Part shown: positions 38-59,255 of the stretch, one piece after another | Layout of the letters: every line of letters begins with the position of its first letter | How positions within the stretch are numbered: position 1 is the stretch's first letter | NCBI GenBank assembly: GCA_963821525.1 | Contig: CAWGED010000010.1 | Location: forward strand, 1 to 64,000 | Direction: 5' to 3' | Length of the DNA stretch: 64,000 nt | Source of the DNA: an uncultured Gemmatimonadales bacterium | Lineage (GTDB): Bacteria; Gemmatimonadota; Gemmatimonadetes; Gemmatimonadales; GWC2-71-9 | Program-made: the position numbers and the translations under genes | The notes under the pieces: model-generated | Database searches by the model: none | The model's input: only the letters and a program-made list of their open reading frames with translations | What the model was told of the DNA's origin: nothing

Positions 38-1351
38 TTGCCAGCCCCCTTGACCGACCGACCATTGCTTCAGCGCGTCATCGGCGGGCGTGGCCTCGCT
101 GCCGCGATCTTCAACATTACGGTCGGCGCGGCCATCTTCGTTCTTCCTGCACACGTGGCTGGCTCCCTCGGCGCGGCTGCGCCCCTCGCCTATCTCGTCT
201 GCGCCGTCGCGACCGCGCTGGTGGCACTCTGCTTCGCCGAGGCGGGGAGCCGAGTGCCTCAGAGCGGGGGCCCGTATGCCTATGTCGAGGTGGCGCTCGG
301 CCCCTATGTCGGGTTCGTCTGCGGCGTCCTGCTTTGGCTCGGCATAACGCTCGCTATGGCCGCCGTCGCTACCGTGTTCGCTGATGCATGCTCCAGTCTC
401 GTCCCTGTCTTCACGGGGAGCGTTGCACGGTCATTGCTGCTGGCTGCGATCTTCGCGATCCTCGCCTGGGTCAACATGCGCGGAACCGCGCTGGGCTCCC
501 GCGTTAACGGCATCTCAACGCTCGCCAAGCTGCTACCGCTCGTTGCCTTCGTCCTACTTGGCCTGTTCCACGTACACACCGCTAACCTTGCGATCACCAC
601 GTTACCGCCACTCCGCACAGTGGGCGAAGCGGGATTGCTCTTGATGTTTGCGTTCTTTGGAATGGAATCGGCGCTCCAGGTAAGCGGAGAGGTCACCGAC
701 CCCTCGCGGACAGTGCCGCGAGCGATTGGCGCGGCCCTGTTGGGTGTCGCTCTCCTCTACATCTCGGTTCAGCTGGTTGCTCAGGGAGTGCTGGGGAACG
801 CCCTGTCTGCGCCCGAGACGGCGAAGGCGCCCCTCGCCGCTGCCGCAGAGCAGTTCGCAGGCCCGGCTGGTGCAAGGCTGATCCTGATAGGGATGGTCCT
901 CTCCACGTTTGGATTCATGACCGGGATGATGCTCTCGACCCCGCGGACGCTGTTCGCCCTGGCTGCTGACGGGTTTTTCCCGCGCCCGCTGGCCCGAGTG
1001 CATCCGGAGTATCACACGCCCTACGTCGCCATCGCGGTACAGGGAGTGATCGTGTGCCTCATCGCGATCACCGGTACGTACGTGAAGCTGGCGATCCTCG
1101 CGGATGTCGCCCTTCTCATCGTCTACCTGGCGTGCTGTGTTGGCGCGGGTCAGCTTCGCCGTCGCAACGTGGGTGCCGAGAGAAACCCGTTCGTGATGCC
1201 TGCGGGCGGGGTGGTACCATGGCTGGCCGCCGCGCTGATCCTGGGGCTGCTCACGCGTGCGTCGATGGCAGCGTGGCTTCTCACCGGTGCGGTCGTCGCG
1301 ATCGCCTCGCTTGGCTATGTTGTTAGGCGCTTGAACCGAGACGCCGCCTGA
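38..1351 (+). CDS. APC-family amino acid permease
   Basis: 437-aa ORF with ~12 hydrophobic segments and APC motifs (TVGAAIF, FAEAGSRVPQSGGPYAY, FAFFGME, LARVHP..TPYVA). Confidence 0.9.
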   Translation: MPAPLTDRPLLQRVIGGRGLAAAIFNITVGAAIFVLPAHVAGSLGAAAPLAYLVCAVATALVALCFAEAGSRVPQSGGPYAYVEVALGPYVGFVCGVLLWLGITLAMAAVATVFADACSSLVPVFTGSVARSLLLAAIFAILAWVNMRGTALGSRVNGISTLAKLLPLVAFVLLGLFHVHTANLAITTLPPLRTVGEAGLLLMFAFFGMESALQVSGEVTDPSRTVPRAIGAALLGVALLYISVQLVAQGVLGNALSAPETAKAPLAAAAEQFAGPAGARLILIGMVLSTFGFMTGMMLSTPRTLFALAADGFFPRPLARVHPEYHTPYVAIAVQGVIVCLIAITGTYVKLAILADVALLIVYLACCVGAGQLRRRNVGAERNPFVMPAGGVVPWLAAALILGLLTRASMAAWLLTGAVVAIASLGYVVRRLNRDAA

Positions 1352-1410
1352 CCAGCGCTCGGAGCAGTCGACCCGCCAACCCACTCGTCACCAATCGCAG
1401 CTATGAGCCA
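1346..1410 (+). repeat. degenerate attC-like site
   Basis: Permease stop lies in GCCTGAC, followed by CAGCGCTCGGAGCAG and later CGCAGCT; no clear R' core. Confidence 0.4.
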
Positions 1411-1437
1411 TCGAACGAATATCATATCGGGCTCGTC

Positions 1438-1806
1438 GTGACCCTTCTGGCGCGCCGTACACTCGCACAGTCACCACCAGTCGCCCCGAATCCTCTCGGC
1501 GTTTGGCGAGGCACGTCGACGTGCCTCATTCGCCCATCGGCATGCCATGATGAGATTGTCGTCTATCGCATCACGCACGGGAGTGTCCGCGATAGCCTTG
1601 CGTTGGACGGACGCAAGATTGTCAACGGCCAGGAAGTCGAAATGGGTGTGCTCGGCTGCCGGGTCGCTCAACCCGAGGCGCAGGTCATCTGTCTCATCCC
1701 GAGTGGCGTGTGGCGTTTCACGGTACGAGGCGACAGCCTCGTTGGCGAGTTGCGATTGTCAGACAACACGACATCCCGTGACGTTCGAGCCGCCCGCTCG
1801 CGTTAG
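1438..1806 (+). CDS. hypothetical secreted protein
   Basis: 122-aa ORF (GVWRGTSTC...CHDE); true start may lie upstream near 1402. Confidence 0.6.
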   Translation: MTLLARRTLAQSPPVAPNPLGVWRGTSTCLIRPSACHDEIVVYRITHGSVRDSLALDGRKIVNGQEVEMGVLGCRVAQPEAQVICLIPSGVWRFTVRGDSLVGELRLSDNTTSRDVRAARSR

Positions 1807-1853
1807 CCAGCACGCGTGTCATCGCCAACCAGTGTGCCCTCGTAAGGTTCCTG

Positions 1854-2228
1854 ATGCCGAACATCCCAACGAGTAATCCAAAGCAGTTCTACCAGGCCGC
1901 TCCTTTGCTCACAGTTCCGGATGTGATGGCGGCCGCCAGTTACTACCAGCGCGTACTTGGCTTTCAGGCCGATGCCGATACGCTCACCGCAGACTACGGC
2001 GTCGTGTGGCGGGACAACGCGGCCGTGCATTTTGCGGTCGGCGCGAACGTAGCAACGGGCGTACGCATTTTCTTCTGGGTCCGGGACGTGAACCAGCTCT
2101 ATGAGGACGTCCAGGCGCGCGGGGCCCAACTTCTTGAGCCGATCGGTACCCGCCCCTACCACGTTCGCGATTTCTCAATTCGCGATCTCAACGGGATTGA
2201 GCTCGTCTTTGGGCAGGATTGGGACTGA
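1854..2228 (+). CDS. VOC/glyoxalase/bleomycin-resistance family protein
   Basis: PLLTVPDV..YYQRVLGF and RPYHVRDFSIRDLNGIELVF motifs. Confidence 0.85.
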   Translation: MPNIPTSNPKQFYQAAPLLTVPDVMAAASYYQRVLGFQADADTLTADYGVVWRDNAAVHFAVGANVATGVRIFFWVRDVNQLYEDVQARGAQLLEPIGTRPYHVRDFSIRDLNGIELVFGQDWD

Positions 2229-2293
2229 GTTCGGCGCCTGAATGGCTGGGGGTCGATCGCGAGTCCTGTTCAATCGGCCGCGGAGGTTTTCCC

Positions 2294-2690
2294 ATGACCG
2301 TTGGTCGTGTCGCGTTGCTGGTGGGTGTCGCCGTCTTGGTGCTCGTGGCGTGTCGCCGCCAGCATCTTGTACATGGTCGTCTACAGCTACGTCATCAACC
2401 CGGGCCACGAACCGCAGTACTACAACGACACATTCAGGTTGCCGGGCCGTATGCAGCATCGTCGCCGGTATCCCGCTCATGTTCCTCGCCGGTTGGTGGG
2501 TCGCGGGGTGGTGGCGGCAGGCGCACGGCGGGCGGGCGGCTTGGATTGTCTGGCTCGCGTACACTGTGATCGATCTCGCCATCCTGCTTGCGGCCGGGAT
2601 GTCGAGGGGTGTCGGGCTCTTGTTCGTCGTGTCGTTCGCCACCAAGCTGGCAGCAGTGTATTCGGTGCGAGGCTCCGGATCGCACGACCG
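2294..2690 (+). pseudogene. frameshifted hypothetical membrane protein
   Basis: GGAGG plus ATG at 2294; hydrophobic coding text continues across three frames; ends at an attC-like left arm. Confidence 0.55.
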
Positions 2691-2770
2691 GCCGAACCAG
2701 ACACTGCAGCAGACGGCGCGGGCGTGTAGGCTTTCCAACGTTCGCGGCCCCAGCAGCCCCCGTCGAGCTA
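2691..2770 (+). repeat. attC-like left arm (R''/L''), right end lost
   Basis: GCCGAAC-CAGACACTGCAGCAGACGG directly after the gene; a convergent gene ends where R' would be. Confidence 0.55.
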
Positions 2771-3350
2771 TCCGGTCTTCAAAGGCCCGGCGACCTTGTA
2801 AGTACTGAAGATGATGCCGGACGGCATTGCTTTCGTGCTGACGAGCTCGAATGAGCGTGGCGGGGTTCCCTCCGCAAAGAAGCGCTTCCCCGTGCCCAAC
2901 AGGACCGGATAGACGGCCAGCAGGACTTCATCCGCAAGCCCATGTTCGAGCAGCGTCGATGTCAGCGTGGAGCTACCCGAGAGGATAAGGTCCGGGCCGT
3001 CCTGCGACTTGATGCGGCGAATGCCCTCGACGATGTCCGGTCCAAGGCCCTCGAACGGGCCCCATTCAAGACTTTCCGGACGGTGGGTAGCGATATATTT
3101 CGTCGCCGCATTGAGGCCGTCCGCCATCGGACTGCTCGGCGCCTTTGGCCAGAAGCCCGACCAGACATCGTAGGTGCGACGGCCAAGCAGCAGATCGAAG
3201 CTCTCGCCATACGCGGCGAGCATTGCGTCCCGGCCAGCGGGGGTCCGATAGGGCGCGGTCCAGTCGCTGTAGGGGAAATCGTCGTCATCGGCCGGAGTGC
3301 TGGATCACGCCGTCCAGCGAGATGTGTTCGATGATCTTGAGCTTTCTCAT
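2768..3350 (-). CDS. RibD C-terminal/dihydrofolate reductase family protein (frameshifted near N-terminus)
   Basis: MRKLKIIEHISLDGVIQ at 3350, then LLGRRTY, GSSTL and DEVLLAVYPVLLGTGKRFF in another frame. Confidence 0.8.
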
Positions 3351-3373
3351 TCGAGTCTCCGTGTTGTACGCCG

Positions 3374-4528
3374 TCAGGGTCCGCGGGTGCGGCCGAGGTA
3401 GCTCCTGGCCTGTTGGCCGACGAGATCGACCAGATTGCCCATGGCCACTTCCATGTCGACCAGATGCAGGCCAAGCGGCTCCGCCAGGTCCCCTTGAATG
3501 TCACGGCTGGCCGGACTGTGAGGACCACGCTCGACCGACACCTCGAGATACGAGGCGAACGCGTTGGACCTGCACTGCCCCTTCAACAGCCCCACCACAC
3601 GCACCATGGGCGTGGCGATGGGGTGTCCGCCAACGGTCCACGGATCTAAGGGGCCGAACGGCAGGGCAGTTCTTCCTGCCGCGTCGAAATAGCCATTGAG
3701 GGCGGCCTCGCCGCCGCCGAGCGCCGCGGGATTGGTGCATGCCGCGACGAGTGTCGAGTCGGCCGACAGCCCGAAGCGGGTGGTCGCCGTCGGCGGCGCG
3801 GTATTGCGGAATGATGAATACGCCACGACGCAGCCGGTCTGGGTGGCCGCGCGACAGAGCGGCAGGTGCAGAAAGGTGCCGCCCACGTCCTTCCCGCGGG
3901 GCACGAGGATGCCCCCCGGTCCGCCGATGAGGAACGCGGAGACGATGCGTGACTGCACCGGTGCTCCCTCGATTTCCTTGCGGATCAACTCGGTCAGAAT
4001 GACGGTGCCCTGCGAATGCCCGATCAGCACAATTCCGCGATTGCCATTGTCGTGCGCGAGGTAGTAGCGCCACGCGGCGCGGACGTCCTGGTATCCGACG
4101 GCCAGGAAATCGGGTGACTCAATGCCGGCGGCGTTGGCACGACCCATGGCGGCGAGGGTGAGTTGCCGGTACATGGGCGCGAACAGCCGGCACTGGGTGC
4201 CAAACCGCGCCAGCTGCAGTCGCACGACGCCACGCTCGGCGTCGTCGGGGACGAGATCACTGAGGTCCGTCGTATCCGTCGACACCGTGGGATAGACATA
4301 GAAGCAATCCACCGGCGCCTTTGGATTCAGGGGCGCATGCTCAACGGTGGACCGGCCGTCCGGACTGAGCACGGTGGTGGAAAGATCCACCTCGCATGCA
4401 CCGGGCCGGTCGGGGCGGCAGAGCCATGCTTGCGGGTTGCCGTAGTCCGGCGCGGGCGGTGCGGCGGTGGTCTGCGCGATCGCATCCGTCGCCGCGATCG
4501 ATAGGGCCAGGAGGACAAGGCGCAGCAT
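3374..4528 (-). CDS. DUF3089-type secreted alpha/beta hydrolase
   Basis: Signal peptide; WLCRP, DCFYVYPTVS, APMYRQ and nucleophile motif GHSQG. Confidence 0.85.
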   Translation of the reverse strand: MLRLVLLALSIAATDAIAQTTAAPPAPDYGNPQAWLCRPDRPGACEVDLSTTVLSPDGRSTVEHAPLNPKAPVDCFYVYPTVSTDTTDLSDLVPDDAERGVVRLQLARFGTQCRLFAPMYRQLTLAAMGRANAAGIESPDFLAVGYQDVRAAWRYYLAHDNGNRGIVLIGHSQGTVILTELIRKEIEGAPVQSRIVSAFLIGGPGGILVPRGKDVGGTFLHLPLCRAATQTGCVVAYSSFRNTAPPTATTRFGLSADSTLVAACTNPAALGGGEAALNGYFDAAGRTALPFGPLDPWTVGGHPIATPMVRVVGLLKGQCRSNAFASYLEVSVERGPHSPASRDIQGDLAEPLGLHLVDMEVAMGNLVDLVGQQARSYLGRTRGP

Positions 4529-4529
4529 G

Positions 4530-5343
4530 CTAACGCTCCGCCGGCGCCGGAAAGCGATTCTGAAACCACGCTTCCCAGAGCGGTGCCTCACGAGCGACGT
4601 TCCGGCCGCCTGATCACCGTACAGATACATGTTCATCGCAACCGTGGTCGGCCCGCCGGGAAAGCCGGCGATGCCGAGGGCGGCCACACCTGGCGCCGGC
4701 TTGTCGAGGCGAAGCAGAGCGTCGAACGGTTCCTGCGTGACATACTCAACTACGCCACTGAAAGCCGGGACACCCGCAGGCGCAGTGAATCGCTGCCCGA
4801 CACTCATGTCTTTCAGTCCCAACGCCGCCGTCAGCGCTTCCCAACTCTCTCCGTCCGTACCCGGGGCGGGAGCCCTGAACTGCTCCATCGCGGAACGTTG
4901 CCCGCGGAAGTGCGTGAGATAGAGCCGCAGGATATTGCAGGAAACTGGCGAGTCCACCCTTCGCGCGTCGAGTTGCGAGTCCCATTCGTCGGTGCTCGCG
5001 AAAAGGCTCTGCACAATGCGGATAACGCAAACGCCACCGCCGCGCGCTTCGACACTCCATTCGCTCGCCATGATCGGCGAGCCGGGCATCCAACCGGCGG
5101 CCTCATTGACGAACATCCGCGGCGGATCCCAAACGGTGACATCGGAGCGACCCACCATCCCCGACCGAAGTTCACCTTGATCGCGACGGCCTTCCCGTCG
5201 CGCTGTTCGAACTCCGTCGGCACAAACCACGACGAAATCCCCGGCCCGGTAGCGATTGCCTGCCAGACTTCCTCCGGTGTGCCGGGGACTTCGAATTCCG
5301 TGGTACGGGACCGGCGTCCGGACGGCTCTTGCTTCACGCTCAT
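4530..5343 (-). CDS. SRPBCC/AHSA1 domain protein (frameshifted)
   Basis: MSVKQEPSGRR..EVPGTPEEVWQAIATGPGISSWFVP, then WDPPRMF and LRLYLTHF in other frames; start overlaps regulator stop. Confidence 0.8.
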
Positions 5344-5945
5344 GACAACGGCTCCTGGGGAATGGATTTCTGTGGTGTAGGGTAGGCCACGACCACCAGC
5401 CGATGAGCACGGCCTCCGGGCGCGGACGCATCGTGATACTTCGACGCGAGTGTCGCGATCGCGTCGGTGAGTTCCTTGCTGAAAGCCGCCCGGTCTGCGG
5501 CCGACCGGAAGCGAACCTCGGTATCCACCGCCAGGGTCGCCAGGCGTTTGCCCGACTCTTTCGCACGACGAACGAGGTCGCCCACCTCGCGGACGACCCG
5601 AGCGCCCAGGGCGATGAGATAACTCGCGGAGAGCCGATCGACTTCCCGATTCGGATCGACGGCGATCGGGCCCAGGGCGCCCGGCGAAACGACGTAGGAA
5701 GCGGCCGTCGCGACGAGCAGCCGTTCCGTCAGCCCGCCCCACTTGCGTTCCTCGGCCAGCCGAACCAGCCCGTGCGCCTCCAGCGCGTTCAGGTGGTAGT
5801 TGACCTTTTGCCGAGCCAGGCCGACCCGCGTGGCCAACGTCGCCGCCGAGGCGGGCGCGGCCAGTTCGGAGAGGAGTCGGCTTCGCGTCGGCTCCAGGGC
5901 CACCGTCGCGGCCGCGGGATCATCGATGACTTGGATATCGAGCAT
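5340..5945 (-). CDS. ArsR-like winged HTH transcriptional regulator
   Basis: RSRLLSEL..SAATLATRVGLARQKVNYHLNALEAHGLV. Confidence 0.9.
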   Translation of the reverse strand: MLDIQVIDDPAAATVALEPTRSRLLSELAAPASAATLATRVGLARQKVNYHLNALEAHGLVRLAEERKWGGLTERLLVATAASYVVSPGALGPIAVDPNREVDRLSASYLIALGARVVREVGDLVRRAKESGKRLATLAVDTEVRFRSAADRAAFSKELTDAIATLASKYHDASAPGGRAHRLVVVAYPTPQKSIPQEPLS

Positions 5946-7347: not shown

Positions 7348-7413
7348 GCCTAACTGGCGCTTGCTGCGGACCGGGACATAGCGCCTCGCCGCAGGAAGCG
7401 CGGGTCGTTAACC
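7348..7413 (+). repeat. attC-like site (66 bp)
   Basis: GCCTAAC..GCGCTTGCTGCGG ... CCGCAGGAAGCGC..GTTAACC; imperfect inverted repeat bounded by R''/R' cores. Confidence 0.75.
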
Positions 7414-12651: not shown

Positions 12652-13027
12652 CGATGAAACCTCCCGAAAAGTGAACTGTCACTAATGCCATACTCGGCAC
12701 TAACTCGCCTTTGGATGCTGGGGTTCCATCGCCGGATTGGGACAGAGGGTTCTGATAGCTTTCGATCTCATGCAGACGCTGGAACTGGACGATCAGTTCA
12801 CGGAGTGGGTCCGGGATCTCAGGTCCGATGGTGATGGCCAATCGTCGGGCCATGGCCCGGCTGCATGAAGTGCTCCTCCGCGTGGCCCGGGGTGAGGCAG
12901 GCCGCCGTCGCACGATCTCGCCGACGGTGATACGCTCGAGTGGATTCGCCTCGGCGCTCAGCTCGGCATTGGCCTCCTTGTGTCCGATGCCTGGTGGCTC
13001 GCCGAGGATGGATGGGCCGTGCCATTG

Positions 13028-13078
13028 AGTTGTGGACTCGAATACACAACGCCCGCGCGTGAAGCGCGGGCGTTAGAT
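13028..13078 (+). repeat. attC family, right half
   Basis: AGTTGTGGACTCG..CGCCCGCGCGTGAAGCGCGGGC-GTTAGAT matches the right half of the 21481 and 27075 copies. Confidence 0.75.
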
Positions 13079-13112
13079 GGCGATCGGATCCCGCTTGTAC
13101 TTGCAGGGCCCC

Positions 13113-16041: not shown

Positions 16042-16508
16042 ATGCGTCATGGGGATCGCTTGAAGAATCTACCTGTCCTCAATGAAACCGATTCCCCGTG
16101 GCCCGCGGTTGACGTCTCGCTCGGCACCATCGTGAATCGCAAGGTCACGTTGGCGTTCATTGGAAGGCTCCAGCGACGACTGCGACGACTCCCATTTGTA
16201 CCCTACTTTAGCGCTCGGGAGGGACATTCCCCCTATTCGAGGCAACGGCATAATCGGCGAAATGAGCCTCCTGGTTCGCAACGGCGCTCAAGCGGTCGAG
16301 TATCGTGCTCCCACCTCAGGCCCCGATCGGGGCTTGCCCGCTTGGCCATGCCGCGGGATTGCAATGTCTTCCGCGAACAGATGAAGCCGCTTCCCCTGCG
16401 CGGGTGGAAAGAATTCTACTCATTCACCCGAGCTACCGGGCCAATGGACACCGACATGTTCTGGACCTATCAGGTACAAGAGGCCCACTTGGAGCGAGGC
16501 CATATAAC
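16042..16508 (+). pseudogene. hypothetical cassette gene, probably frameshifted
   Basis: Lower-GC coding-like text in alternating frames, running into the attC at 16502. Confidence 0.35.
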
Positions 16509-16571
16509 CGGCGCGTGCAGCTGACGATGGTACTCTGGTCGTTTGGGCAACTGATGGGCCAGTCGTTAGCC
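16502..16571 (+). repeat. attC-like site (70 bp)
   Basis: ATATAAC..GCGTGCAGCTGAC ... GCAACTGATGGGC..GTTAGCC. Confidence 0.7.
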
Positions 16572-17342: not shown

Positions 17343-17351
17343 CCGTCAGGC
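17337..17351 (+). repeat. collapsed attC (cores only)
   Basis: GTCTAAC-C-GTCAGGC containing the upstream stop codon. Confidence 0.45.
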
Positions 17352-22571: not shown

Positions 22572-22607
22572 GACTCGCGCGGCCCGGCTACGGGTTGAAG
22601 CCGCCGG

Positions 22608-40920: not shown

Positions 40921-41158
40921 GACCGGCATCTCCTCCCTCTTCCCGCCCTTGTTATATCGGCGCCCCGGCAGGGTCCGGACTCGCAGGCCTGAGTGTCCGC
41001 CAGTTCCGAGAGCTTGGCCGCCACCACGCGATCCCGACGCCGGCACGCGATCATCCTGATGGGCGCTGGAGATGTCGATCCGGGCCCCGCTCGTTCGACT
41101 TACTAGTATGAAGCTGTTTTCGAGTCGCCTGGCGGCGGGTTCCGTCCTAACTTTCGGC

Positions 41159-43468
41159 ATGTTCCGCCGGCGCAAGGAAGCTGTCCTCAATCCGATCACC
41201 GTGGGCGACCGCTACACGCTCGACCGAGAGTTGGGCCGGGGCGGGATGGCGGTGGTGTATCTGGCGCGCGACCGCAAGCACGACCGCCCGGTCGCGATCA
41301 AGATCCTGCGCCCCGAGATCGTCACTGGCGAAATCGCCCAGCGCTTCCTGCGCGAGATTCAGATCCTCGCGCGTCTGCAGCACCCCCATATCCTCGCCCT
41401 GCTCGACTCTGGCGCCACCGATGACGTCCCACCGCGGCCGTTCTACGTGATGCCGTACGTGGAAGGCGAGAGCCTGCGCCAGCGGCTCACTCGCGAGGGT
41501 CCGCTCCCGGTCGCGGAGGCGATCCGCCTGGTGCGGGAAGCCGGCGAGGCGCTCCACTACGCCCACGGGGAGGGACTGATTCATCGCGACGTGAAGCCGG
41601 AGAACGTCCTGCTCTCGCAGCGCCACGCCCTGGTCGCTGACTTCGGCATCGCACGTGCCGCGGGCATCGCGGGCGGCAACCAGCTGACTGAGCCCGGGCT
41701 GAGTATGGGGACCCCGGCCTACATGAGTCCTGAGCAGGCCAGCGGCGAACGCGAGGTCGACGCTCGGGCAGACCAGTACAGCCTCGCCTGCGTTCTCTAC
41801 GAGCTGCTGGCGGGTGAGCCGCCCTTCACCGGGCCCAACATATTCGCTGTGATATCGCGCCAGATGCGCGACCCGGTGCCGCCACTGACGACGATTCGCC
41901 CCGGAGTGCCGATGTCGGTGCGACGGGCGATCGAGCGGGCGCTATCCAAGGTTCCGGCGGACCGGTTCGCGACGGTGCTGGAGTTCCTGGCGGCCCTGGA
42001 GGCGCCGGAGTCTCCGGAGGCTCCCGCGGTCGCGCCGAAGAAGGCGATCGTGGTACTGCCGTTCGCCAATCTGAGCCCCGATCCCGACAACGCGTACTTC
42101 GGGGACGGCCTGATGGAAGAGGTGATCGCGGACCTCTCCCGGGTCCGGGCGCTCACCGTGATCTCCCGGACCTCGTCGGTCAAGCTCAAGGAGACTGGCT
42201 GGGACCTCCGGCGCATCGGGCGCGAGCTCAACGTCCGCTACGCGCTCGAGGGGAGCGTGCGCAGGGAGGGCCCCGCCCTTCGGATCACGGCCCAGCTGAT
42301 CGACGTCGAGACCGACGTCCACCTCTGGGCCGAGAAATACGCAGGAACGGTGGACGACGTGTTCGATTTGCAGGAGAGGCTCTCGCGCCAGATCGTCGAG
42401 GCGCTGCAGATCACGCTCTCGCAACCGGAGGATCGCGAGATCGCGCAGCGTCCGATCGCGGATCTCCGCGCGTTCGAGTACTACCAGCGCGCCCGCCAGG
42501 AGTACTACCGGTATACCGGCGAAGGAATGGCGGCGGCGCGAGCGCTGGCGGACCACGGGCTCGCAGTGGTAGGCCCCAATGAGGCTTTGTATGGGATGCT
42601 GGGCACAGTGTACGCGTGGTCGCCGGTGGTGCTCGCCGGGGACGAGGAGACCACCCTGCGGGAAGCGGAGGCCTGTGCCCGCCGAGCCTTCGAGCTGAAC
42701 CCCCGCTCGGCGCAGGGTCTATCGATCCTGGGTCAGGTCGCCTACCGCCGGGGCAACGCCGGGGAAGCCGTTCGGCTGCTGACCCAGGCCTGCGCCGCCG
42801 ATCCCAACAATCCCGACGCGATGCACCAGCTGGGCGGCGCGTACCTGTTGGGCGGGCGGATCGGCCCCATGCGGGAGGTGCTGACCCGATTGGCCGAGCT
42901 GGACCCGCTGACGGCTAGCAATCACTGCCTGCTGGGATTGAGTTACCTGCTGGGCGGCGACGCCGCCGGTGCGCTGCCTTCTCACCGCCGGGCGGTCGAG
43001 CTGGATCCGCGGAGCACGATCTGCCGGGTCTGCGACGCCGTCGCGCTGGTGGCCGCGGGGCGCGAGGCCGAGGCGGCGAGCCAGTTCGAGTGGCTGGAAC
43101 ACCAGCCTTCGGACGATCACTTGGCGGCGGTTGCGGTGCGCTTCCGGCGCGGCCTGACCGGCGATCGGGAGGCGGTGCTGTCGCCGCCGAGCGCGGCGGA
43201 GCGCACGATGGCGGAATCCGACGAATACTGGTCCTACCTGATGGCGGGAGCCTATGCGCTGGTCGGTGACGCTGAGCAGGCACTGGGCTGGCTGGAGCAT
43301 GCGGTAACGGTGCGCGGGTGGGTGGACTATGTGTACTTCACCCGACATGACCGTTTCCTCGAGCGCGTCCGGTCGACGCGGCGCTTCAAGGAGCTGATGG
43401 ACTCGGCACGCGAGCGGTATGCGCGGTTCACGGACGCCGGCATACCCGCCGAACTGAGATCGATCTAG
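41159..43468 (+). CDS. Ser/Thr protein kinase with TolB-like and TPR domains
   Basis: LGRGGMAVV, VAIK, HRDVKPEN, DFG, GTPAYMSPE; IVVLPFANLSPD; TPR repeats. Confidence 0.92.
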   Translation: MFRRRKEAVLNPITVGDRYTLDRELGRGGMAVVYLARDRKHDRPVAIKILRPEIVTGEIAQRFLREIQILARLQHPHILALLDSGATDDVPPRPFYVMPYVEGESLRQRLTREGPLPVAEAIRLVREAGEALHYAHGEGLIHRDVKPENVLLSQRHALVADFGIARAAGIAGGNQLTEPGLSMGTPAYMSPEQASGEREVDARADQYSLACVLYELLAGEPPFTGPNIFAVISRQMRDPVPPLTTIRPGVPMSVRRAIERALSKVPADRFATVLEFLAALEAPESPEAPAVAPKKAIVVLPFANLSPDPDNAYFGDGLMEEVIADLSRVRALTVISRTSSVKLKETGWDLRRIGRELNVRYALEGSVRREGPALRITAQLIDVETDVHLWAEKYAGTVDDVFDLQERLSRQIVEALQITLSQPEDREIAQRPIADLRAFEYYQRARQEYYRYTGEGMAAARALADHGLAVVGPNEALYGMLGTVYAWSPVVLAGDEETTLREAEACARRAFELNPRSAQGLSILGQVAYRRGNAGEAVRLLTQACAADPNNPDAMHQLGGAYLLGGRIGPMREVLTRLAELDPLTASNHCLLGLSYLLGGDAAGALPSHRRAVELDPRSTICRVCDAVALVAAGREAEAASQFEWLEHQPSDDHLAAVAVRFRRGLTGDREAVLSPPSAAERTMAESDEYWSYLMAGAYALVGDAEQALGWLEHAVTVRGWVDYVYFTRHDRFLERVRSTRRFKELMDSARERYARFTDAGIPAELRSI

Positions 43469-43516
43469 TCGGCGAGGCCGATCGATTCCTCCGATGCCCG
43501 GCTCTGCTCCGGGTAC

Positions 43517-43567
43517 GCTTAACTGGACTCGTATACTCGACCCCCCGAGGTCAAGCCGGCGACAGGG
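43517..43567 (+). repeat. highly degenerate attC family relic
   Basis: GCTTAAC-TGGACTCGTATACTCG..GAGGTCAAGCCGGC-GACAGGG. Confidence 0.5.
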
Positions 43568-43588
43568 GGGCTAACAAGGAAGTTTAGG

Positions 43589-43975
43589 ATGGCCACCATG
43601 TCAGAACAGAATAAGGCGATCGTGCGGGCATTCTACGATCTGGCCTTCAATGACCAACAGCCCGCCGAGGCCGCCGCCAAGTACATTGGCGCGACCTACC
43701 GCCAGCATAATCCCGGCGCCGCCGATGGCGCGGAGCCCTTCGTGGCTTTCGTAACCGGCTTCCTCAAGGCCTTTCCCAGGCTGCGCGTCACCTTCAAGCG
43801 GATGGTAGCCGAAGGCGAACTCGTTGCTCTCCACAGTCATTTTGTGCGGGAGCCCGGGGACGGAGGGTTGGCGGTCATGGATATCTTTCGGTTGGAGGGC
43901 GGCAAGCTCGTTGAACACTGGGATGTGCTCCAGGAAGTCCCGCCTGCGACGGCCAATCCCAACACGATGTTCTAA
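43589..43975 (+). CDS. SnoaL-like/ester cyclase family protein
   Basis: NKAIVRAFY, YRQHNP and DIFRLEGGKLVEHWDV. Confidence 0.9.
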   Translation: MATMSEQNKAIVRAFYDLAFNDQQPAEAAAKYIGATYRQHNPGAADGAEPFVAFVTGFLKAFPRLRVTFKRMVAEGELVALHSHFVREPGDGGLAVMDIFRLEGGKLVEHWDVLQEVPPATANPNTMF

Positions 43976-45093: not shown

Positions 45094-45552
45094 CTAGTTC
45101 CAGTTGTCGATCTTCAAATCATCCGGCGAAGGCCGGCCCTTCCCGGTTTCCACAAAGTCTCTGAGACTCAGGAGAAACACCGCCCATTTCATGCTGCAGT
45201 GGGCGGTAAACTCGATCGCTTCCCGCCAATTCCGGTGCCCGAACAGGAGCACCGTCGTGTCGCCCTCCTGAGTCAGTTGGAAGGTCGCATCGGTCCCGAC
45301 CCATTCCGGCGGTCCTCCCAGGAAACGCCACTGGACTTCCCGATTGGGCTCGAGCTTGGTCATCTCGAAGTCCATCTGCCCGATTTCCTTCCCGTCCTTG
45401 TGACGGAAGCGAACATTGATTTTCCCGCCGACCTTGGACGATCCGGTCGTGTCCCGGGTCCACCACCCTGCCACGCCCTGCGCCGTCGCCAGCGCCTCAT
45501 AGACCTTCGTCGCGGGCGCCTTGATGCCGATTCGATGAATGATGTCAACCAT
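45094..45552 (-). CDS. SRPBCC/AHSA1 domain protein
   Basis: HRIGIKAP..VYEALAT..GWWT and HCSMKWAVFLLSLR. Confidence 0.88.
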   Translation of the reverse strand: MVDIIHRIGIKAPATKVYEALATAQGVAGWWTRDTTGSSKVGGKINVRFRHKDGKEIGQMDFEMTKLEPNREVQWRFLGGPPEWVGTDATFQLTQEGDTTVLLFGHRNWREAIEFTAHCSMKWAVFLLSLRDFVETGKGRPSPDDLKIDNWN

Positions 45553-45581
45553 AGTTTCCTCTGCTTGTCTTTGGTTAATGC

Positions 45582-45926
45582 CTAGCCTTCGACTATTTCC
45601 ACAAACGCTTTCAACCTCGCTGCCGCCGCGTCCCACTGCGCCGAGACGTGATCGATGTACTCCCGCGCGACCTCGAGGCGTTTGAGATCCAGCGAGAACA
45701 CATGCTCTCGGCCCTCCCTGGTGTCTCGCACGAGGCCCACCTTCCCTAGTGCGTGCAGGTGCCGGGTGATCGCCTGGCGGGTCATCCCGCTCCCCTCGCT
45801 CAAGCGGGTAATGGAGAGCGGGCCTTCGGTCGACAGGCGTCGCACCAGGCTGAGCCGGGTAGCGTCCCCCAGCGCGGCAAACACCGGGGCGGCCTGGCGC
45901 GCAGCTCCGCCTCTGCTAGCCGACAT
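45582..45926 (-). CDS. ArsR/SmtB family regulator
   Basis: FAALGDATRL and TRQAITRHL..GLV..GRE. Confidence 0.88.
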   Translation of the reverse strand: MSASRGGAARQAAPVFAALGDATRLSLVRRLSTEGPLSITRLSEGSGMTRQAITRHLHALGKVGLVRDTREGREHVFSLDLKRLEVAREYIDHVSAQWDAAAARLKAFVEIVEG

Positions 45927-46386
45927 AACTCGCCAGCTTTTTGGACTGGCCGGTCCACCCTGCCTCGTTCATCCGGAACGCCTCAGCGCGTCGCGTGCTG
46001 GGGAGACGGTCGAAGCCCGACTCAGTGATCGTCACCGCAGTGCCACCCGCCGTCTCTTCCAGCCGGAATTCGACCAGGGTGGTCGGCTCCGCCGCGTAAT
46101 CGACCTCGGGATTCATCGGGTAGGGATGCCAGCGGTAAGAGAAGTAGCCCTCTGGTTCGATCCGCTCGACCTGCATCTCAAGCGAGATGTGCTCATATCC
46201 CGGAATGGTGAGTCGTCCGAAAACGGTGGCGCCGGCGGTGAAGGGGCGGTCCAGCTTCATGCCGAACCAGGCGCCGAACTCGTTCGCATCGGAGATCGCC
46301 CGCCAGACCCGGGAGCGCTTGGCACTTACCTCGAAACGCTTCTCGATCCGGTCGGTGGTCTGGGGTTGGTCGGTGGTGGCGGTCAT
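45916..46386 (-). CDS. SRPBCC/AHSA1 domain protein
   Basis: RVWRAISDANEFGAWF, TLVEFRL and TITESGF. Confidence 0.9.
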   Translation of the reverse strand: MTATTDQPQTTDRIEKRFEVSAKRSRVWRAISDANEFGAWFGMKLDRPFTAGATVFGRLTIPGYEHISLEMQVERIEPEGYFSYRWHPYPMNPEVDYAAEPTTLVEFRLEETAGGTAVTITESGFDRLPSTRRAEAFRMNEAGWTGQSKKLASYVG

Positions 46387-46432
46387 AAGTCGTTGCTGCT
46401 CCTGTCTATCGGTTGCGGTGGCTCGCTAACGT

Positions 46433-46493
46433 GCAACAGTTACGTTGCCTATTATAAGGCCCACCTTGTAAATGCGCAACTGTTGTGTTGCGC
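46433..46493 (-). promoter_or_regulatory. promoter with two palindromic operators
   Basis: Minus strand TTGCGC-17nt-TATAAT; GCAAC-N6-GTTGC at 46433-46448 and 46476-46491. Confidence 0.75.
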
Positions 46494-46586
46494 TTCTCTG
46501 GATGCCAGGCCGGGCCTGACCGGCGCCTTCCACAACCCGCAAGCTCTTGCGAGGATTCTGGGTCCAACTCAAGTGAGCAGGTTTCG

Positions 46587-47051
46587 ATGAGCCCAAAGAA
46601 AAACACGCCGAAGTCCGCCAAGACCACCACCGCGACCGGCAAGAAGTTCAAGGGATTCACGGACGAAGAACGACTCGCGATGAAGGAGCGGATCCAGGAG
46701 CTGAAGGGGGCGGACGGGGAAAGTGCCGTCCTCGCGAAGATCGCCGCGATGCCGGAACCGGATCGTGCGATGGGCAAGCGGCTCCATGCGATCATCAAAG
46801 CCAGCGCACCAGCGCTCGCGCCGAGACTCTGGTACGGGATGCCCGCCTATGCCAAGGACGGCGAGGTCGTCTGCTTCTTCCAAAACGCGCAGAAGTTCAA
46901 GACGAGGTATTCGACGCTTGGCTTCAGCGACAAGGCGAACCTCGACGACGGCGCCATGTGGCCGACCGGCTTCGCGCTGAAGGAGTTGACTGGCGCTGAG
47001 GAGGCGAGGATCCGCGCGCTCGTGCAAAGAGCAACCACCGGCTCCCCCTGA
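46587..47051 (+). CDS. DUF1801 protein
   Basis: [29 protein letters not shown]. Confidence 0.85.
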
Positions 47052-47169
47052 CCGAGGAACTTGGGAGTCAGTTCCGCGCTCAGAATGAGCCAATTCGGGC
47101 GTAATCCGCGCCTAATCAGGTCGAACAGCGGAACAAAGACTTATGGACACCTAACAATGAAGGAATCCC

Positions 47170-47991
47170 ATGACTGCTGTAGCCGTTAACCCGAATCAGG
47201 CGCTCTGGGAAAAAGGAGATTTCACCCGGATTGCGGCCAGCATGCGCGAAAGCGGCGAGGCTCTCGTGCAGCGCATCGGCGTCCGCCGCGGAGACGACGT
47301 CCTGGACCTTGGCTGCGGCGATGGAACCACCGCCTTGCCTGCCGCCCAAACGGGTGCCTACGTCCTCGGCGTGGATATCGCCCGGAATCTGGTCGAGGCC
47401 GGGAACCGGCGGGCCGCGGCGCTCGGCCTGGCCAATTGCAGATTCCAACAGGGCGACGCCACGAACCTTGAGCTGATTCCGGATCGCGCGTTTGACATAG
47501 TCGTCAGCATCTTCGGCGCCATGTTCGCTCCCAGACCCTTCGACGTGGCCAGGGAAATGGTTCGCGTGACGCGCCCCGGGGGACGGATCGTCATGGGCAA
47601 TTGGATTCCGAACGACCCCACGCTCGTCGCCCAGATTCTGCGAATCAGCTCCGCCTATACCCCGCCGCCTCCCGAGGGATTTGTCAGTCCGATGACCTGG
47701 GGCGTTGAGAGCCAGGTGGTGGAGCGCTTTGTCGCCGCGGGCATCCCGGCAGAGAAGATCTCGTGCGTTCGCGACACGTTCATCTTCCGCTTCGCCGGAT
47801 CGCCAGCGCAACTCGTCGATGAGTTCAGGAGATACTACGGGCCGACGATGAATGCCTTCGACGCGGCGGAGAAGAACGGGCGCGCCGCGAGCCTGCAGGC
47901 AGAGCTCGAGGAGTTGTTCACCGCTCAGAACACGAGCACCAATGGCACGACGATTCCAGCCACGTTCCTGCGGGTGGAAGTGACCTGCTAA
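47170..47991 (+). CDS. class I SAM-dependent methyltransferase
   Basis: VLDLGCGDG, FDIVVSIFGAMFAP and RVTRPGG. Confidence 0.9.
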   Translation: MTAVAVNPNQALWEKGDFTRIAASMRESGEALVQRIGVRRGDDVLDLGCGDGTTALPAAQTGAYVLGVDIARNLVEAGNRRAAALGLANCRFQQGDATNLELIPDRAFDIVVSIFGAMFAPRPFDVAREMVRVTRPGGRIVMGNWIPNDPTLVAQILRISSAYTPPPPEGFVSPMTWGVESQVVERFVAAGIPAEKISCVRDTFIFRFAGSPAQLVDEFRRYYGPTMNAFDAAEKNGRAASLQAELEELFTAQNTSTNGTTIPATFLRVEVTC

Positions 47992-48162
47992 CCCCGCCTC
48001 CCGATACGGGCCTGATACCATCGGTACAATTGACCCGGCTCATTTCCGCTGGTAACTATGGCGCGGCAGGTCCATCGACCTGTCGCGTCCGATTCAAGTA
48101 GACGTACCACGCGCCGTCGGGAAGCGGTCAAGGCCGCTGACCTTGGGAAGGAGAAACGGGGT

Positions 48163-48717
48163 ATGGGAAGCAATCAAAGGTGGGCGATCGCGGTCGCGAC
48201 GGCACTCATCAGTGCCTCAGGCGCCGGCGCCATGTCCGCCCAGGACAAGTACAGCGTGAAGGTGCCGGGTGGGCTCGCGTTCTCCGAGTTCAAGGGATAC
48301 GAAAACTGGCAGCTGATCTCCGTCAGTCAGGACGGCGGCCTGCTGGCCGCGATCCTCGGCAATCCCGCGATGATCGACGCCTACAAGGCCGGCGTTCCTG
48401 GCAACGGCAAGCCGTTCCCCGACGGCTCCAAGATGGCGAAGATCCACTGGAACCCGACCAAGATGTCGGTGTTCCCCCAAGCGACGGTGCCGGGCACCCA
48501 GCATGACGTCGACTTCATGGTGAAGGACAGCAAGCGGTTCGCGGACAGCGGTGGGTGGGGATGGGCCGTGTTCGTGTACGACACTGTGTCCCACGCGTTC
48601 ACGCCCGGCACCACGGCTGACAAGCCGCCGCAGGCAAACGACGCCAAGTGCGGCTTCGGGTGCCACACTATAGTGAAAAACAGGGACTACGTCTTCACGG
48701 ATTACGGGGCGCGCTGA
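48163..48717 (+). CDS. cytochrome P460 family protein
   Basis: Signal peptide; FPDGSKMAK, MVKDSKRF..SGGWGW and C-terminal CGFGCH. Confidence 0.85.
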   Translation: MGSNQRWAIAVATALISASGAGAMSAQDKYSVKVPGGLAFSEFKGYENWQLISVSQDGGLLAAILGNPAMIDAYKAGVPGNGKPFPDGSKMAKIHWNPTKMSVFPQATVPGTQHDVDFMVKDSKRFADSGGWGWAVFVYDTVSHAFTPGTTADKPPQANDAKCGFGCHTIVKNRDYVFTDYGAR

Positions 48718-48736
48718 ACCAGGAACGCCATCAGTC

Positions 48737-49147
48737 TCAGCGGGACTTGCGGTGGCCAGCGCCGGATTGGTTCAGCGCCACCGCTTCGCGGATCAGAGCC
48801 TTGAAGGAGGCCTCATCGATCTTCTCCCCTTCGCGGAAATCGATGGCCCGCCTGGTGTTTCCTTCAAGGCTCGAGTTAAAGAGCTTCCTGGGGTCCTTCA
48901 GCTGGGCGCCCTTGGCGAAGGTCAGCTTCACGGCGCTCTTGTAGCTCTCGCCGGTGCAGATCAATCCGTCGTGTGACCAGACCGGCCCACCCCATTTCCA
49001 CTCCTCCACCACTCCCGGGTCCGCCTCCTTGATCAGACCTCGCAGCCGAGCGAGCGTCTCGCCTCGCCAGTCGTCCAGCTCCTTTATCCTCCCGTCTATG
49101 AGTTGAGAGGGAGACCCGCCTGCCGGCTCACCGCTGCTCTTCTTCAT
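48737..49147 (-). CDS. DUF1801 protein
   Basis: EEWKWGGPVW and FAKGAQLKDPRKLFNSSLEGNTRRAID. Confidence 0.88.
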   Translation of the reverse strand: MKKSSGEPAGGSPSQLIDGRIKELDDWRGETLARLRGLIKEADPGVVEEWKWGGPVWSHDGLICTGESYKSAVKLTFAKGAQLKDPRKLFNSSLEGNTRRAIDFREGEKIDEASFKALIREAVALNQSGAGHRKSR

Positions 49148-49196
49148 ATCGTTTCATCCCTTCAATTCGAGTTGTTCTTCTCTCGTGCCGATGCTT

Positions 49197-49415
49197 TCAG
49201 GCGTCGCGTCGCCCGCTGCGCCACTTGGCGGCATACGGCAGCACGAACAAGTACAAACCGGTGACCGCGAGCAAGGCAAGCGGGAACAGCGGCACGTAGC
49301 TCACCCAGACGAGAGGCTTCTCCTGTTTCAAGGCGACGAACGTGACGATGACGGACACCGTAAAGACAATGGCCAGCCAGCGGTGGGTCTGCCGAACCCA
49401 ATGGTTCCAGTTCAC
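49197..49415 (-). CDS. small membrane protein
   Basis: GGAGAGG RBS; RQTHRWL and 2 TM segments. Confidence 0.75.
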   Translation of the reverse strand: MNWNHWVRQTHRWLAIVFTVSVIVTFVALKQEKPLVWVSYVPLFPLALLAVTGLYLFVLPYAAKWRSGRRDA

Positions 49416-49451
49416 TGCGACCTCCTCTCCGGATTGCTGGACGTTGGATGG

Positions 49452-49991
49452 TCAGCTCGGAATGTCTTTACCGAATTGCCTGGCGTACTCCGCATTCAGC
49501 CGCTGCCAGCCGCCGAACTGCATTGTCTCGGGGCCGGCGATGCGTCCAATCGGCTGGCCGGCGAGCAGCCGGTCCAGCACATCCAGGCAGATGTGCCAGC
49601 CCGCAGCACCCCACGAGATGAAGCGGCGATCGATGTTGTGCCAGAGGGTCAGGCGGGTGCCGCTGCCGAGCGGCTCGAGCTCCCACCGGAGGTCCCCGCC
49701 ACCCCAGCTGTACTCGAGCAGCCTCGGCGCCTCGGCCCGCTTCACCGTGGTCTCGGAAACCTGCGGCGTTCCGACCGTCGAGAGCTTCACCGTGGTTCCA
49801 GCCGTACCCAGGCTCCCATCGGATTCAAAGGGAGCCCACTCGCGCAGCTGCGCCGGGTCGGTAAGTGCCTGCCAGACTGTCGCCGGCGAGTGGCGCAGCT
49901 CTCTGACGAGAATCAGGGTCCATTTCTCTCCCTCCTTACGGACTTCCGCCCCGCTGGCCGGGCCCGGTGCGTACTGTACGTGATCGGTCAT
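49452..49991 (-). CDS. SRPBCC/AHSA1 domain protein
   Basis: VWQALTDPAQLREWAP and AAGWHICLDVL. Confidence 0.88.
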   Translation of the reverse strand: MTDHVQYAPGPASGAEVRKEGEKWTLILVRELRHSPATVWQALTDPAQLREWAPFESDGSLGTAGTTVKLSTVGTPQVSETTVKRAEAPRLLEYSWGGGDLRWELEPLGSGTRLTLWHNIDRRFISWGAAGWHICLDVLDRLLAGQPIGRIAGPETMQFGGWQRLNAEYARQFGKDIPS

Positions 49992-50329
49992 TTCCCCCTT
50001 CCCTTCTTCTTCGTTGACGGTGATTGGTCCATGCGGTCGAGGTGGCGCTCGAGCGCATCGACATGACCGGACCAGAACCGACGGAACGGATCCAGCCAGG
50101 CATCCAGTTCCTGAAGTGGTTCTGGCTTCAGTCGGTAGAGGCGGCGTTGAGCGTCCACTGTGGATTCGACGAAACCGGCCTCGCGCAGGACCCGGAGGTG
50201 CTTGGACACGGTCGGCTGCGGCATCCGAAGGCGACGCTCGATCTCTCCAACCGACCTTTGGGACGAGACCAGGAGGCCCAGAATCGCGCGGCGGTTCGGC
50301 TCCGCGATGATTTCGAAGACGGATTCCAT
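49988..50329 (-). CDS. ArsR/SmtB family regulator
   Basis: FEIIAEPNRRAIL and QPTVSKHLRVLREAGFV. Confidence 0.9.
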   Translation of the reverse strand: MESVFEIIAEPNRRAILGLLVSSQRSVGEIERRLRMPQPTVSKHLRVLREAGFVESTVDAQRRLYRLKPEPLQELDAWLDPFRRFWSGHVDALERHLDRMDQSPSTKKKGRGK

Positions 50330-58230: not shown

Positions 58231-58238
58231 GCTCACCC

Positions 58239-58305
58239 GCCTGACCAGCGCCTGCACCTGCCGGGCGCTACTTTTCACTTCCAGCCAGTCCATCGTTGCA
58301 GGATC
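58239..58305 (+). repeat. attC family, left half
   Basis: GCCTGAC-CAGCGCCTGCACCTGCCGGGCGCTA..., 8 bp after a stop codon. Confidence 0.75.
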
Positions 58306-58398
58306 TGCTGCGGCTGCCTGGTCGCGTATCTCAGACCCGACGCCCCGGGCCTGGCGACGGAGCCGTAATCAAGAAACCGATTCAGGAGGACCAAGACC

Positions 58399-58797
58399 AT
58401 GGAACTCGCGACCGCATCTGGCACGACGAACCTGACCGGCATATCGCCCCAATTCCTGGTGGACGACCTCGCTCGCTCCATCGAGTACTACGGTCGGTGC
58501 CTTGGCTTTGATCTGGACTTCCAGTACCAGGACTTCTACGCAAGCGTCAGCCGAGACGGCTGTGCGATTCATCTCAAGGCCGCGCCAAAGAATGAAGCCG
58601 ACCGGGCACATCGCCAGGAGCACGAGCATCTCGACGCCCACATCGCCGTCCGGAACGCCGCCGCCTTGTATGACGAACTGCACTCCCGCGGGGCGTTGAT
58701 CACGAGGGCGCTGGAGGACAGACCGTGGTCGTGCAGGGACTTCTACATCCAGGATCCCGACGGCTACATCCTCTGCTTCAGCGAGCTGACCGCCTAA
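58399..58797 (+). CDS. VOC/glyoxalase family protein
   Basis: ISPQFLVDDL and RPWSCRDFYIQDPDGYILCF; stop lies in GCCTAAC-GC-GTTAC. Confidence 0.9.
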   Translation: MELATASGTTNLTGISPQFLVDDLARSIEYYGRCLGFDLDFQYQDFYASVSRDGCAIHLKAAPKNEADRAHRQEHEHLDAHIAVRNAAALYDELHSRGALITRALEDRPWSCRDFYIQDPDGYILCFSELTA

Positions 58798-58865
58798 CGC
58801 GTTACTCGGCCAGGCGATGACGCAGCGCCGAAGCGTCATCGTGCCCATCCGAGCCAGGGCCGACA

Positions 58866-59210
58866 ATGCCCCTTGCGCCGCCTTCGGCACTTCGTGCGAT
58901 CAAGCTCATCCATACGGTGGCATGGGTTTTCTTTGTGGCTGCCATACTCGCCATCCCGCTCGCGGCGTGGCATGAGAGGTTTGGCCTGGCGTTGGTCTGT
59001 GCGGTGATTGTCGCCGTCGAAGTCCTCGTCCTTGCCGTGAACGGCATGAAGTGCCCACTAACGCCTCTCGCTGCCCGCTACACCGATGACCGCCGCGACA
59101 ACTTTGACATCTACTTGCCATTGCTCATGGCCCGCTATAACAAGGAGATCTTCGGAACCTTGTACGTGGCAGGCCTGGTGTTCGGGCTTGCGCTCTGGCT
59201 GCTCTCATAG
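58866..59210 (+). CDS. small membrane protein
   Basis: IKLIHT, NGMKCPLT and NFDIYLP. Confidence 0.75.
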   Translation: MPLAPPSALRAIKLIHTVAWVFFVAAILAIPLAAWHERFGLALVCAVIVAVEVLVLAVNGMKCPLTPLAARYTDDRRDNFDIYLPLLMARYNKEIFGTLYVAGLVFGLALWLLS

Positions 59211-59238
59211 CCCGGACTGGTCCGAAGGTCCCGGGCTA

Positions 59239-59255
59239 CACTAACCTGGTTAGGC
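59239..59255 (+). repeat. collapsed attC (cores only)
   Basis: CACTAAC-CTG-GTTAGGC, 6 bp before the GNAT ATG. Confidence 0.45.

Follow-up and report, generated by a model that had tools for sequence, protein, structure and literature searches.

How does a long field of decayed recombination sites come to stand in DNA that encodes no integrase? The question is raised by the first 64,000 nucleotides of one contig (C10, from base 1) in the genome of an uncultured Gemmatimonadales bacterium (G000). This stretch, the window, had been read from its sequence alone as an integrase-less, decaying field of integron cassettes with its own family of attC sites of about 103 bp, either a lineage-specific super-integron or an attC cluster that has no integrase (CALIN), interleaved with ordinary operons. 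Comparison with the rest of the genome and with relatives makes it very probable that this stretch forms the far, decaying portion of a single complete chromosomal integron of the inverted type, headed on another contig of the genome (C3).

Head and probable tail of the integron

"Integrase-less" describes the window and contig C10 only: G000 has an intact integron integrase (IntI), encoded at C3:37950-38888. The 326-residue protein, free of stops, matches TIGR02249 at 449.7 bits (cut-off 265), the sole match above the cut-off among five; its residues 15-325, the IntI-specific region included, align with the solved structure of IntI4. About 210 bp behind the intI stop lies attI, whose core is conserved up to the GTT in G000 and in two congeners, G003 and G004; the sequences then diverge. 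A covariance model (CM) of the attC family, trained on 23 C3 sites only to avoid circularity with the window copies, has 47 matches genome-wide: 33 on C3:5402-37265, 8 in the window, and 6 elsewhere. In the window itself there is no intI, and the best plus-strand score of an attI search stayed below 11 bits. A sigma-70 scan for the Pc promoter between intI and attI gave no site directed into the array.

The intI gene and the 33 sites all lie on the C3 minus strand, with the array 3' of intI; with intI, attI and array on one strand, this is an integron of the inverted-integrase type. Co-orientation of intI with its array is the layout described for Treponema (PMC4889954, PMC3607928). The 38 sites or arms on C3 and 16 in the window satisfy the more than 19 attC sites that PMC4889954 takes as its criterion for a sedentary chromosomal integron. 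The claim of a large chromosomal integron in a little-studied phylum held up; integrons have already been listed for this phylum (PMC8618304). IntI above the cut-off occurs in 23 of 41 genomes of the order. Among 80 related IntI loci the layout is reverse at 31, canonical at 5, both at 1, and without detectable attC at 43. The IntI closest to that of G000 (70%) comes from a Gemmatimonadales metagenome-assembled genome, and Gemmatirosa gave the best match in the plasmid collection both for IntI and for the kinase encoded in the window; the host is accordingly placed, as probable, in the Gemmatimonadales.

Two congeners connect C3 to the window. On a single contig of G003 (G003:C5) there follow, in order, the C3 backbone, the intI region (with two frameshifts), the array, homologs of distal C3 (to 133745), and homologs of the window (from 134398) as far as C10:88 kb. 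On G004:C1, homologs of C3:1079-2704 run directly into those of window 1817-2246 and continue as far as 14947. G004 has a further locus at which the C3 backbone borders on counterparts of window 20-54 kb, followed by C10 to 126 kb. Because C3 sequences thus continue into window genes in both congeners, the window would be a distal tail cut off by a contig break. Taken by itself, contig C10 formally has the makings of a CALIN, but no longer once synteny links it to C3; with IntI, attI and 33 CM-detected sites on C3, and with G003 and G004 joining C3 to the window, that part of the sequence-only reading was given up. The platform occupies the same locus in G000 and G003; in G004, intI is at another locus and attI alone is left here, and G023, from another genus, has other neighbours.

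Could the window nevertheless be a separate CALIN, physically apart from the C3 integron after it was rearranged or lost a head of its own, and served in trans if at all? The window's lack of intI and attI would fit, as would G004, which at the same locus keeps attI and only the last ~25 nt of intI, with intI elsewhere. Window homologs occur at a third locus in G001, and the denser sites at 15-33 kb could be the trace of a second, older array. Yet G003, at 94% backbone identity, holds everything on one contig in this order; moreover, the C3 array, with decayed arms and sites, is still running when it reaches the contig end, and the window begins at the first base of C10. A separate CALIN is improbable.

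The state of the sites themselves speaks for a single array. A defect score, counting unpaired positions among the 13 L-stem pairs plus changes in the AAC and GTT cores, rises with distance from attI: rho is 0.78 in G000 (n=44, with the C3-C10 join assumed, the C3 training sites of the CM included, and 10 opposite-strand or upstream rows left out), 0.72 in G003 (n=28), 0.67 in G004 (n=21), and 0.48 in G023 (n=60, 6 rows left out), which has its own family of ~140 bp; G000, G003 and G004 share orthologous sites, so these correlations are not independent. At most one defect is found in all 20 G000 sites within 15 kb of attI, as against 1 of 11 window sites, and the R'' (AAC) and R' (GTT) cores are both intact in 31 of 33 aligned C3 sites versus 4 of 11 in the window. 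On C3, family copies are 91% identical to a reference copy, and in the window 83%. Site density per 10 kb falls from 10 on C3 to 4.2 at window 1-33 kb and 0.6 at 33-64 kb.

Genes show a gradient of retention. Counting genes from the analyst's own gene caller, those with a G003 orthologue number 21/21 in the backbone, 1/19 at C3 20-37.7 kb, 9/23 at C3 1-20 kb, and 24/36 and 25/36 in the two window halves; sharing thus goes from 1/19 near attI to 49/72 in the window. Adjacencies kept with respect to G003 number 20/20, 0/18, 2/22, 11/35 and 19/35 over the same intervals. Window orthologues in G003 have backbone-like identity (93% vs 94%), and all 49 of them, like the 20 in G004, retain the array orientation despite reordering.

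IntI inserts new cassettes at attI, and older ones are pushed away from it. In the mechanism proposed here, cassettes with good attC sites would turn over; core mutation, internal collapse or full deletion of an attC would leave its cassette unable to be excised singly; and such cassettes would stay behind and fuse into operon-like strings. Because cassettes with damaged attC sites stay behind, position in the array would record age, as the gradient suggests, and the tail would have lost recombination activity.

Several points weigh against an ageing tail continuous with C3. They include the two limits on the correlations given above, that is, training sites in the G000 set and orthologous sites common to the congeners. 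Decay is also not monotonic, with more sites at 15-33 kb than at 1-15 kb. Synteny breaks are not significantly enriched at attC remnants (G003, 8/12 vs 20/46, p=0.20; G004, 7/7 vs 20/24, p=0.55). Finally, a contig-end search found no sequence overlap between C3 and C10 (neither end was among the matches listed, and there was no exact overlap), so that the physical join in G000, which we infer, rests on synteny. Public runs, in which no more than 43% of the words of window 1-6000 occur, were left out of account for habitat and shuffling. GC skew is too flat to show the replication strand.

Decay of the attC sites and proposed fixation of genes

The five copies first singled out in the window are present, at 15128-15237 (family-like from 15155), 16605-16711, 18520-18618, 21481-21583 and 27075-27177, with CM scores of 42-68 bits (E 8e-9 to 7e-16). 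Further detection used nhmmer and arm matrices; at the 15-bit level, 0.23 arm matches are expected per strand per 64 kb. Three of the five half-copies also named were recovered by these means (13021-13079, 27903-27958 and 58239); that at 32763-32812 is weak, and that at 43517 is visible by eye alone, without a model match. Eleven CM sites at E<0.05, all on the plus strand, begin at 7348, 15128, 16502, 16605, 18520, 19300, 21481, 22582, 27075, 32043 and 58239. The arm matrices add sites at 1346, 13053, 27931 and 36432 and, more weakly, 32787 (8.3 bits). Model support thus extends to 16 elements (11 CM and 5 arm-only), and about ten further cores were picked out by eye; the "more than 20" of the sequence-only reading are reached only if fragments are counted. 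The ~103-bp family accounts for five near-full copies and five halves, and other attC types for five CM sites. Co-orientation was confirmed, with 16 arm matches at 15 bits or more on the plus strand and none on the minus. Proximity to stop codons likewise stood: an R''-like core lies near the stop of 6 of 55 plus-strand genes, versus 78 of 3969 elsewhere (p=9e-4).

These sites and the blocks that they delimit are as follows.

1346..1375 (+), attC left arm only (R''/L''), 15.3 bits, overlapping the stop of an amino-acid permease gene at 65-1351 (Pfam AA_permease_2)
1801..1808 (+), bare R' crossover at the start of a glyoxalase cassette (1854-2228); the attC arms, deleted here, are present in G003, whose alignment breaks at the GTT, preceded by G003 attC 136168-136240
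2768..5945 (-), inverted block (ArsR-type helix-turn-helix, DUF3089 protein, RibD_C) that moves as a unit; attC-adjacent in G001 and G004
7348..7413 (+), short non-family attC, the best preserved in the window, CM 39 bits, AAC and GTT intact; 0 defects by count, yet the L' arm has gained one base; fold z -1.3
13021..13079 (+), right half alone of a family attC; nhmmer E 7e-9, arm 25.6 bits
15128..15237 (+), family attC with the left arm destroyed; CM 41.6 bits, fold z 0.06
16502..16571 (+), decayed non-family attC; CM 20.3 bits
16565..16711 (+), gutted duplicate cassette, the first ~45 bp of the cassette at 20204 fused to the family attC 16605-16711 (CM 67.7 bits), whose R'' was removed with the deletion; its 5' sequence is that of the first cassette at the G004 home attI
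17332..17348 (+), collapsed attC with R'' and R' cores, arms deleted, the flanking genes now 29 bp apart; from sequence reading and G003 alignment, without a model score
17371..18513 (+), fusion of two former cassettes with 6 bp between them; in G003 a 73.6-bit attC follows the first gene, and the second is elsewhere
18520..18618 (+), family attC with L-stem mismatches; CM 65.4 bits, 3 defects
19300..19354 (+), shortened attC over the stop of a PAP2 gene; CM 19.3 bits; deleted in G003
20204..20666 (+), former cassette with no attC here; a full attC follows it in G003 and G004, and it is the first cassette at the G004 home attI
21481..21583 (+), family attC, mutated in both cores; it and the following gene have a duplicate at 27075-27518 (87% over 442 bp)
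22582..22675 (+), heavily decayed non-family attC; CM 17.1 bits
27075..27177 (+), family attC with R'' mutated; CM 58.3 bits; the bottom strand no longer folds into an attC stem
27903..27958 (+), family attC collapsed by internal deletion; right arm 30.5 bits
32043..32167 (+), non-family attC with R'' broken; CM 35.5 bits
32763..32812 (+), collapsed family attC, right arm 8.3 bits; orthologues of the upstream gene are attC-flanked in G001 and G004
33732..36465 (+), Gate-domain genes and a class-V aminotransferase; an attC left arm (36432-36465) closes the block, which occupies different array positions in G003 and G004, and G001 has the Gate-domain part at a separate locus
41108..43975 (+), a Ser/Thr kinase-TPR gene together with a SnoaL gene and, at ~43490-43575, the remains of an attC; orthologues attC-adjacent in G004
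45094..50329 (.), small accessory genes, two inverted ArsR-SRPBCC (AHSA1) operons among them; no attC detected, putative cassettes
58239..58336 (+), family attC left arm, the last supported site; arm 30.1 bits, CM 17.2 bits
59239..59255 (+), collapsed attC cores directly upstream of a GNAT gene; read from sequence, without a model score

The attC architecture and a homogeneous family of about 103 bp were borne out at the level of the genus; among the matches listed, scores above 80 bits occur only in G000, G002, G003 and G004. The L''/L' stem shows compensatory change at 13 of 25 pairs (none of 500 shuffles was as high, and slid controls were 31-42% paired), for a stem structure drawn from the consensus of the same C3 sequences. 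The two-bulge stem attributed to the repeats is intact in the C3 copies, with 96% of 573 cells paired; in the window it is broken, in keeping with the term "decaying". A strict attC scan finds 24 sites on C3:1-40000 and 0 in the window. Bottom-strand folding gives z -3.9 to -5.7 for three C3 sites and -2.8 to +0.7 for ten window sites, several without a stem. Two sites once put forward for an excision assay, 27075 and 32043, would make poor substrates, since their R'' cores are broken.

Signs that IntI may have recombined these sites are indirect. Block boundaries at 1801, 16712 and 18650 coincide, in the G003 alignment, with the R' GTT, the IntI crossover, and the first cassettes behind attI differ between G000, G003 and G004. 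Recombination of the family through its top strand was considered and rejected: the bulges are on the usual arm, and crossovers map to R'. As to geometry, 24 of 24 C3 sites (L007:355-17265) have G as their first extrahelical base when read on the top strand, which is C on the bottom strand. Their L'-R' spacer measures 7-8 nt; a finder set to 5-6 nt missed them all (0 on C3). The same G and spacer recur in other Gemmatimonadales and at one Verrucomicrobiae locus.

Palindromes of ~100 bp between genes might also be repetitive extragenic palindromes (REP) or miniature inverted-repeat transposable elements (MITE), and the genome does have other dispersed palindromic repeats. Against this stand a strand bias of 16 to 0, clustering behind IntI and attI, AAC and GTT cores, two one-sided bulges, covariation, and breakpoints at GTT. 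An Rfam scan gave no match. Random scatter over the genome, the pattern expected of REP-like repeats, is not what is seen: 41 of the 47 CM matches fall in this one array, in a single orientation. Together these results refute the REP or MITE account, which retains a negligible probability.

How attC sites were lost can be followed by comparing orthologues. Some suffered point mutations in the cores (21481, 27075); others collapsed internally (17332, 27903, 32763, 59239) or were deleted whole (between 18039 and 18046, at 1801, and behind 20658); and one belongs to the gutted duplicate cassette (16565-16711). Judged from these alignments, such deletions would fuse cassettes into operon-like strings. 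Fifteen of the 72 window genes are attC-flanked; with orthologues from the regions fetched for four relatives included, the number is 28 of 72, over a background of 14/1174; the additional 13 genes lack an attC that their orthologues retain. Cassette fusion by attC loss is known (PMC8876359), and a published proposal has cassettes domesticated when replication slippage deletes the attC (bioRxiv 10.1101/2022.09.11.507474).

Other features of the window can be noted briefly. Duplicated cassettes are found within it (21485-21922 and 27080-27518, 87%) and between it and C3 (16711-17319 and C3:8237-8841, 80%). Two copies of a palindromic intergenic repeat unrelated to attC (D6 and D7, ~245-bp spacing) lie at 50376-50796, with look-alikes elsewhere in the genome. 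Genes seem split over two frames at 14157-14943, 23930-24324, 33547-35268 and 39879-40396 (RibD_C, glyoxalase-like, Gate-domain), which may reflect decay or long-read errors. No tRNA or tmRNA was found. A PADLOC scan of 28 window proteins, mostly without a Pfam match, gave no hits, leaving a defence-island reading unsupported.

The distal third of the window

Does the integron extend through the whole window? The cassette-derived part may end at ~44 kb, the rest being a plasticity zone that gathers small accessory operons by other means and merely adjoins the integron. This is compatible with the window being an integron tail, and its chances fall somewhat short of even. One supported site lies past 36.5 kb. 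The R'' and R' cores are not enriched in C10:64-115 kb (1/46 and 0/46), and AHSA1 genes occur at C10:163-193 kb too. Three further findings tell against a cassette origin of the distal genes: from 44.5 kb on, orthologues add no attC-flanked gene beyond one already flanked in the window; small-gene, plus-biased content extends along all of C10; and none of six family homologs of two distal genes, in other genera, has a CM match nearby. Set against a plasticity zone are the strong family arm at 58239 and the collapsed cores at 59239, and the array orientation retained by every G003 and G004 orthologue. All four DUF1801 matches of the genome fall in the window, and in G023 an ArsR-SRPBCC pair, homologous to C3:13729-14606, is a two-gene cassette between two attC sites.

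The sequence-only reading had the cassettes interleaved with ordinary operons, which holds in part. The blocks in question consist of accessory genes in shuffled order, and attC sites bound some of them in relatives, but past 44.5 kb the comparison demonstrated no cassette origin for most genes. Genes beyond ~45 kb are putative cassettes within an integron tail, and the distal third may be a general plasticity zone.

Further attI docks and related systems

An attI matrix ranks three G000 sites far above the rest: C3:37765 and C5:136676, which were in its training set, and C19:507011 (27 bits), which was not. Weaker matches at C6:35271 and C3:136921, directly upstream of small attC clusters, are within the background range. 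The C5 dock (C5:136518-136707, plus strand) has no intI, and its G004 orthologue (G004:C3:452250) is followed by five family attC sites, all intact. The core of the C19 dock is perfect, and in G003 (G003:C1:192719) another cassette comes first. Such orphan platforms without intI are orthologous between genomes and carry a different first cassette in each, which suggests that they may be active.

In G004, an intact intI stands at the C19-dock locus behind an attC. The "integrase-less" state thus exists at the window locus of a congener, where attI and the intI end remain, and not in G000. Immediately before the intact G004 intI comes the attC of a cassette which, by eye, looks like a toxin-antitoxin pair (L017:16182-16286, or G004:C1:1536182-1536286), an arrangement that would fit insertion of the intI-attI head in the manner of a cassette. 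Between the IntI of G004 and that of G000 identity is 85%, and third positions have diverged further than those of the backbone (0.61 vs median 0.745). On C3, one portion of an inverted operon (L006:14657-17397, where an ABC-permease-like gene follows an ArsR-SRPBCC pair) shares 99.3% identity with G004, although the backbones are ~87% identical; to judge by the alignment, a large block probably passed recently between species. G001 (98% complete, no IntI at E<=1e-60) has at a third locus (G001:C82:41.8-56.4 kb; L032-L033, L124) a composite of homologs of the window, distal C3 and the C19 dock. A paralogous Ser/Thr kinase family occupies a tandem field at G000 C19:546-620 kb (in a different order in G004) and C10:41, 123, 154 and 165 kb.

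Most single traits have parallels. Co-oriented intI, attI behind its 3' end, a large array and a homogeneous attC family recall the inverted group (Treponema type), whose layout is shared by 31 of 37 related IntI loci with detectable attC; unlike that group as published, this integron has a probable Gemmatimonadales host, a decayed tail of at least 64 kb, and further attI docks elsewhere in the genome. C10 alone resembles a CALIN as defined in PMC4889954, with several attC sites and no intI, and the 4-kb clustering rule would call one or more there; it differs in that IntI is in the genome and, by synteny, heads the same array. The same paper warns that split integrons yield CALIN calls. Permanent operon-like units left by attC loss also link the locus to fused cassettes of mobile integrons (PMC8876359) and to domestication (bioRxiv 10.1101/2022.09.11.507474), which are reported as single cases or suggested; here tens of genes are involved, ordered along the array and recurring in four genomes. 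In Xanthomonas, chromosomal arrays have likewise been frozen over time (bioRxiv 10.1101/2025.06.18.660453, PMC5371416), but with the integrase inactivated, whereas here IntI is intact, the proximal array turns over, and only the far end freezes. Translocation of whole arrays has been reported for Vibrio super-integrons (PMC1382264). Their Vibrio cholerae repeats (VCRs) have G as the first extrahelical base on the bottom strand (PMC5371416), unlike the C, with the 7-8 nt spacer before R', of the C3 sites. With more than 19 attC sites and one dominant family, the present array resembles these super-integrons.

In Vibrio super-integrons, intI is divergent, and the VCRs are the attC family. The parts of the present element are known; the gradient that leads, in order and in more than one genome, from live cassettes to fixed genes, and the presence of several attI docks for one integrase, may go beyond the literature searched, which covered few subscription papers and gave no account of either, a weak indication of novelty.

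A broader and tentative model, held at slightly less than even chances, would make the Gemmatimonadales integron a conveyor that turns cassettes into permanent genes, along a locus of ~150 kb (C3:38 kb to ~C10:115 kb) on which position serves as a clock and into which large operons and the kinase gene entered as cassettes. One IntI would serve several attI docks distributed along the chromosome (at least three orthologous ones in the genus), platforms and array blocks would move between docks, and many apparent CALINs would be live satellites headed by attI.

On the fate of ageing cassettes in large chromosomal integrons, published proposals of attC loss and domestication draw mostly on single cases. 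Here the stages are arranged in sequence along one locus, and relatives preserve earlier states of the same sites, which makes decay rate, route of loss and retention measurable. CALIN calls in fragmented assemblies can be the tails of complete integrons; and, as the 13 of 72 window genes recognisable only through orthologues indicate, attC-based tools undercount the genes that integrons have supplied.

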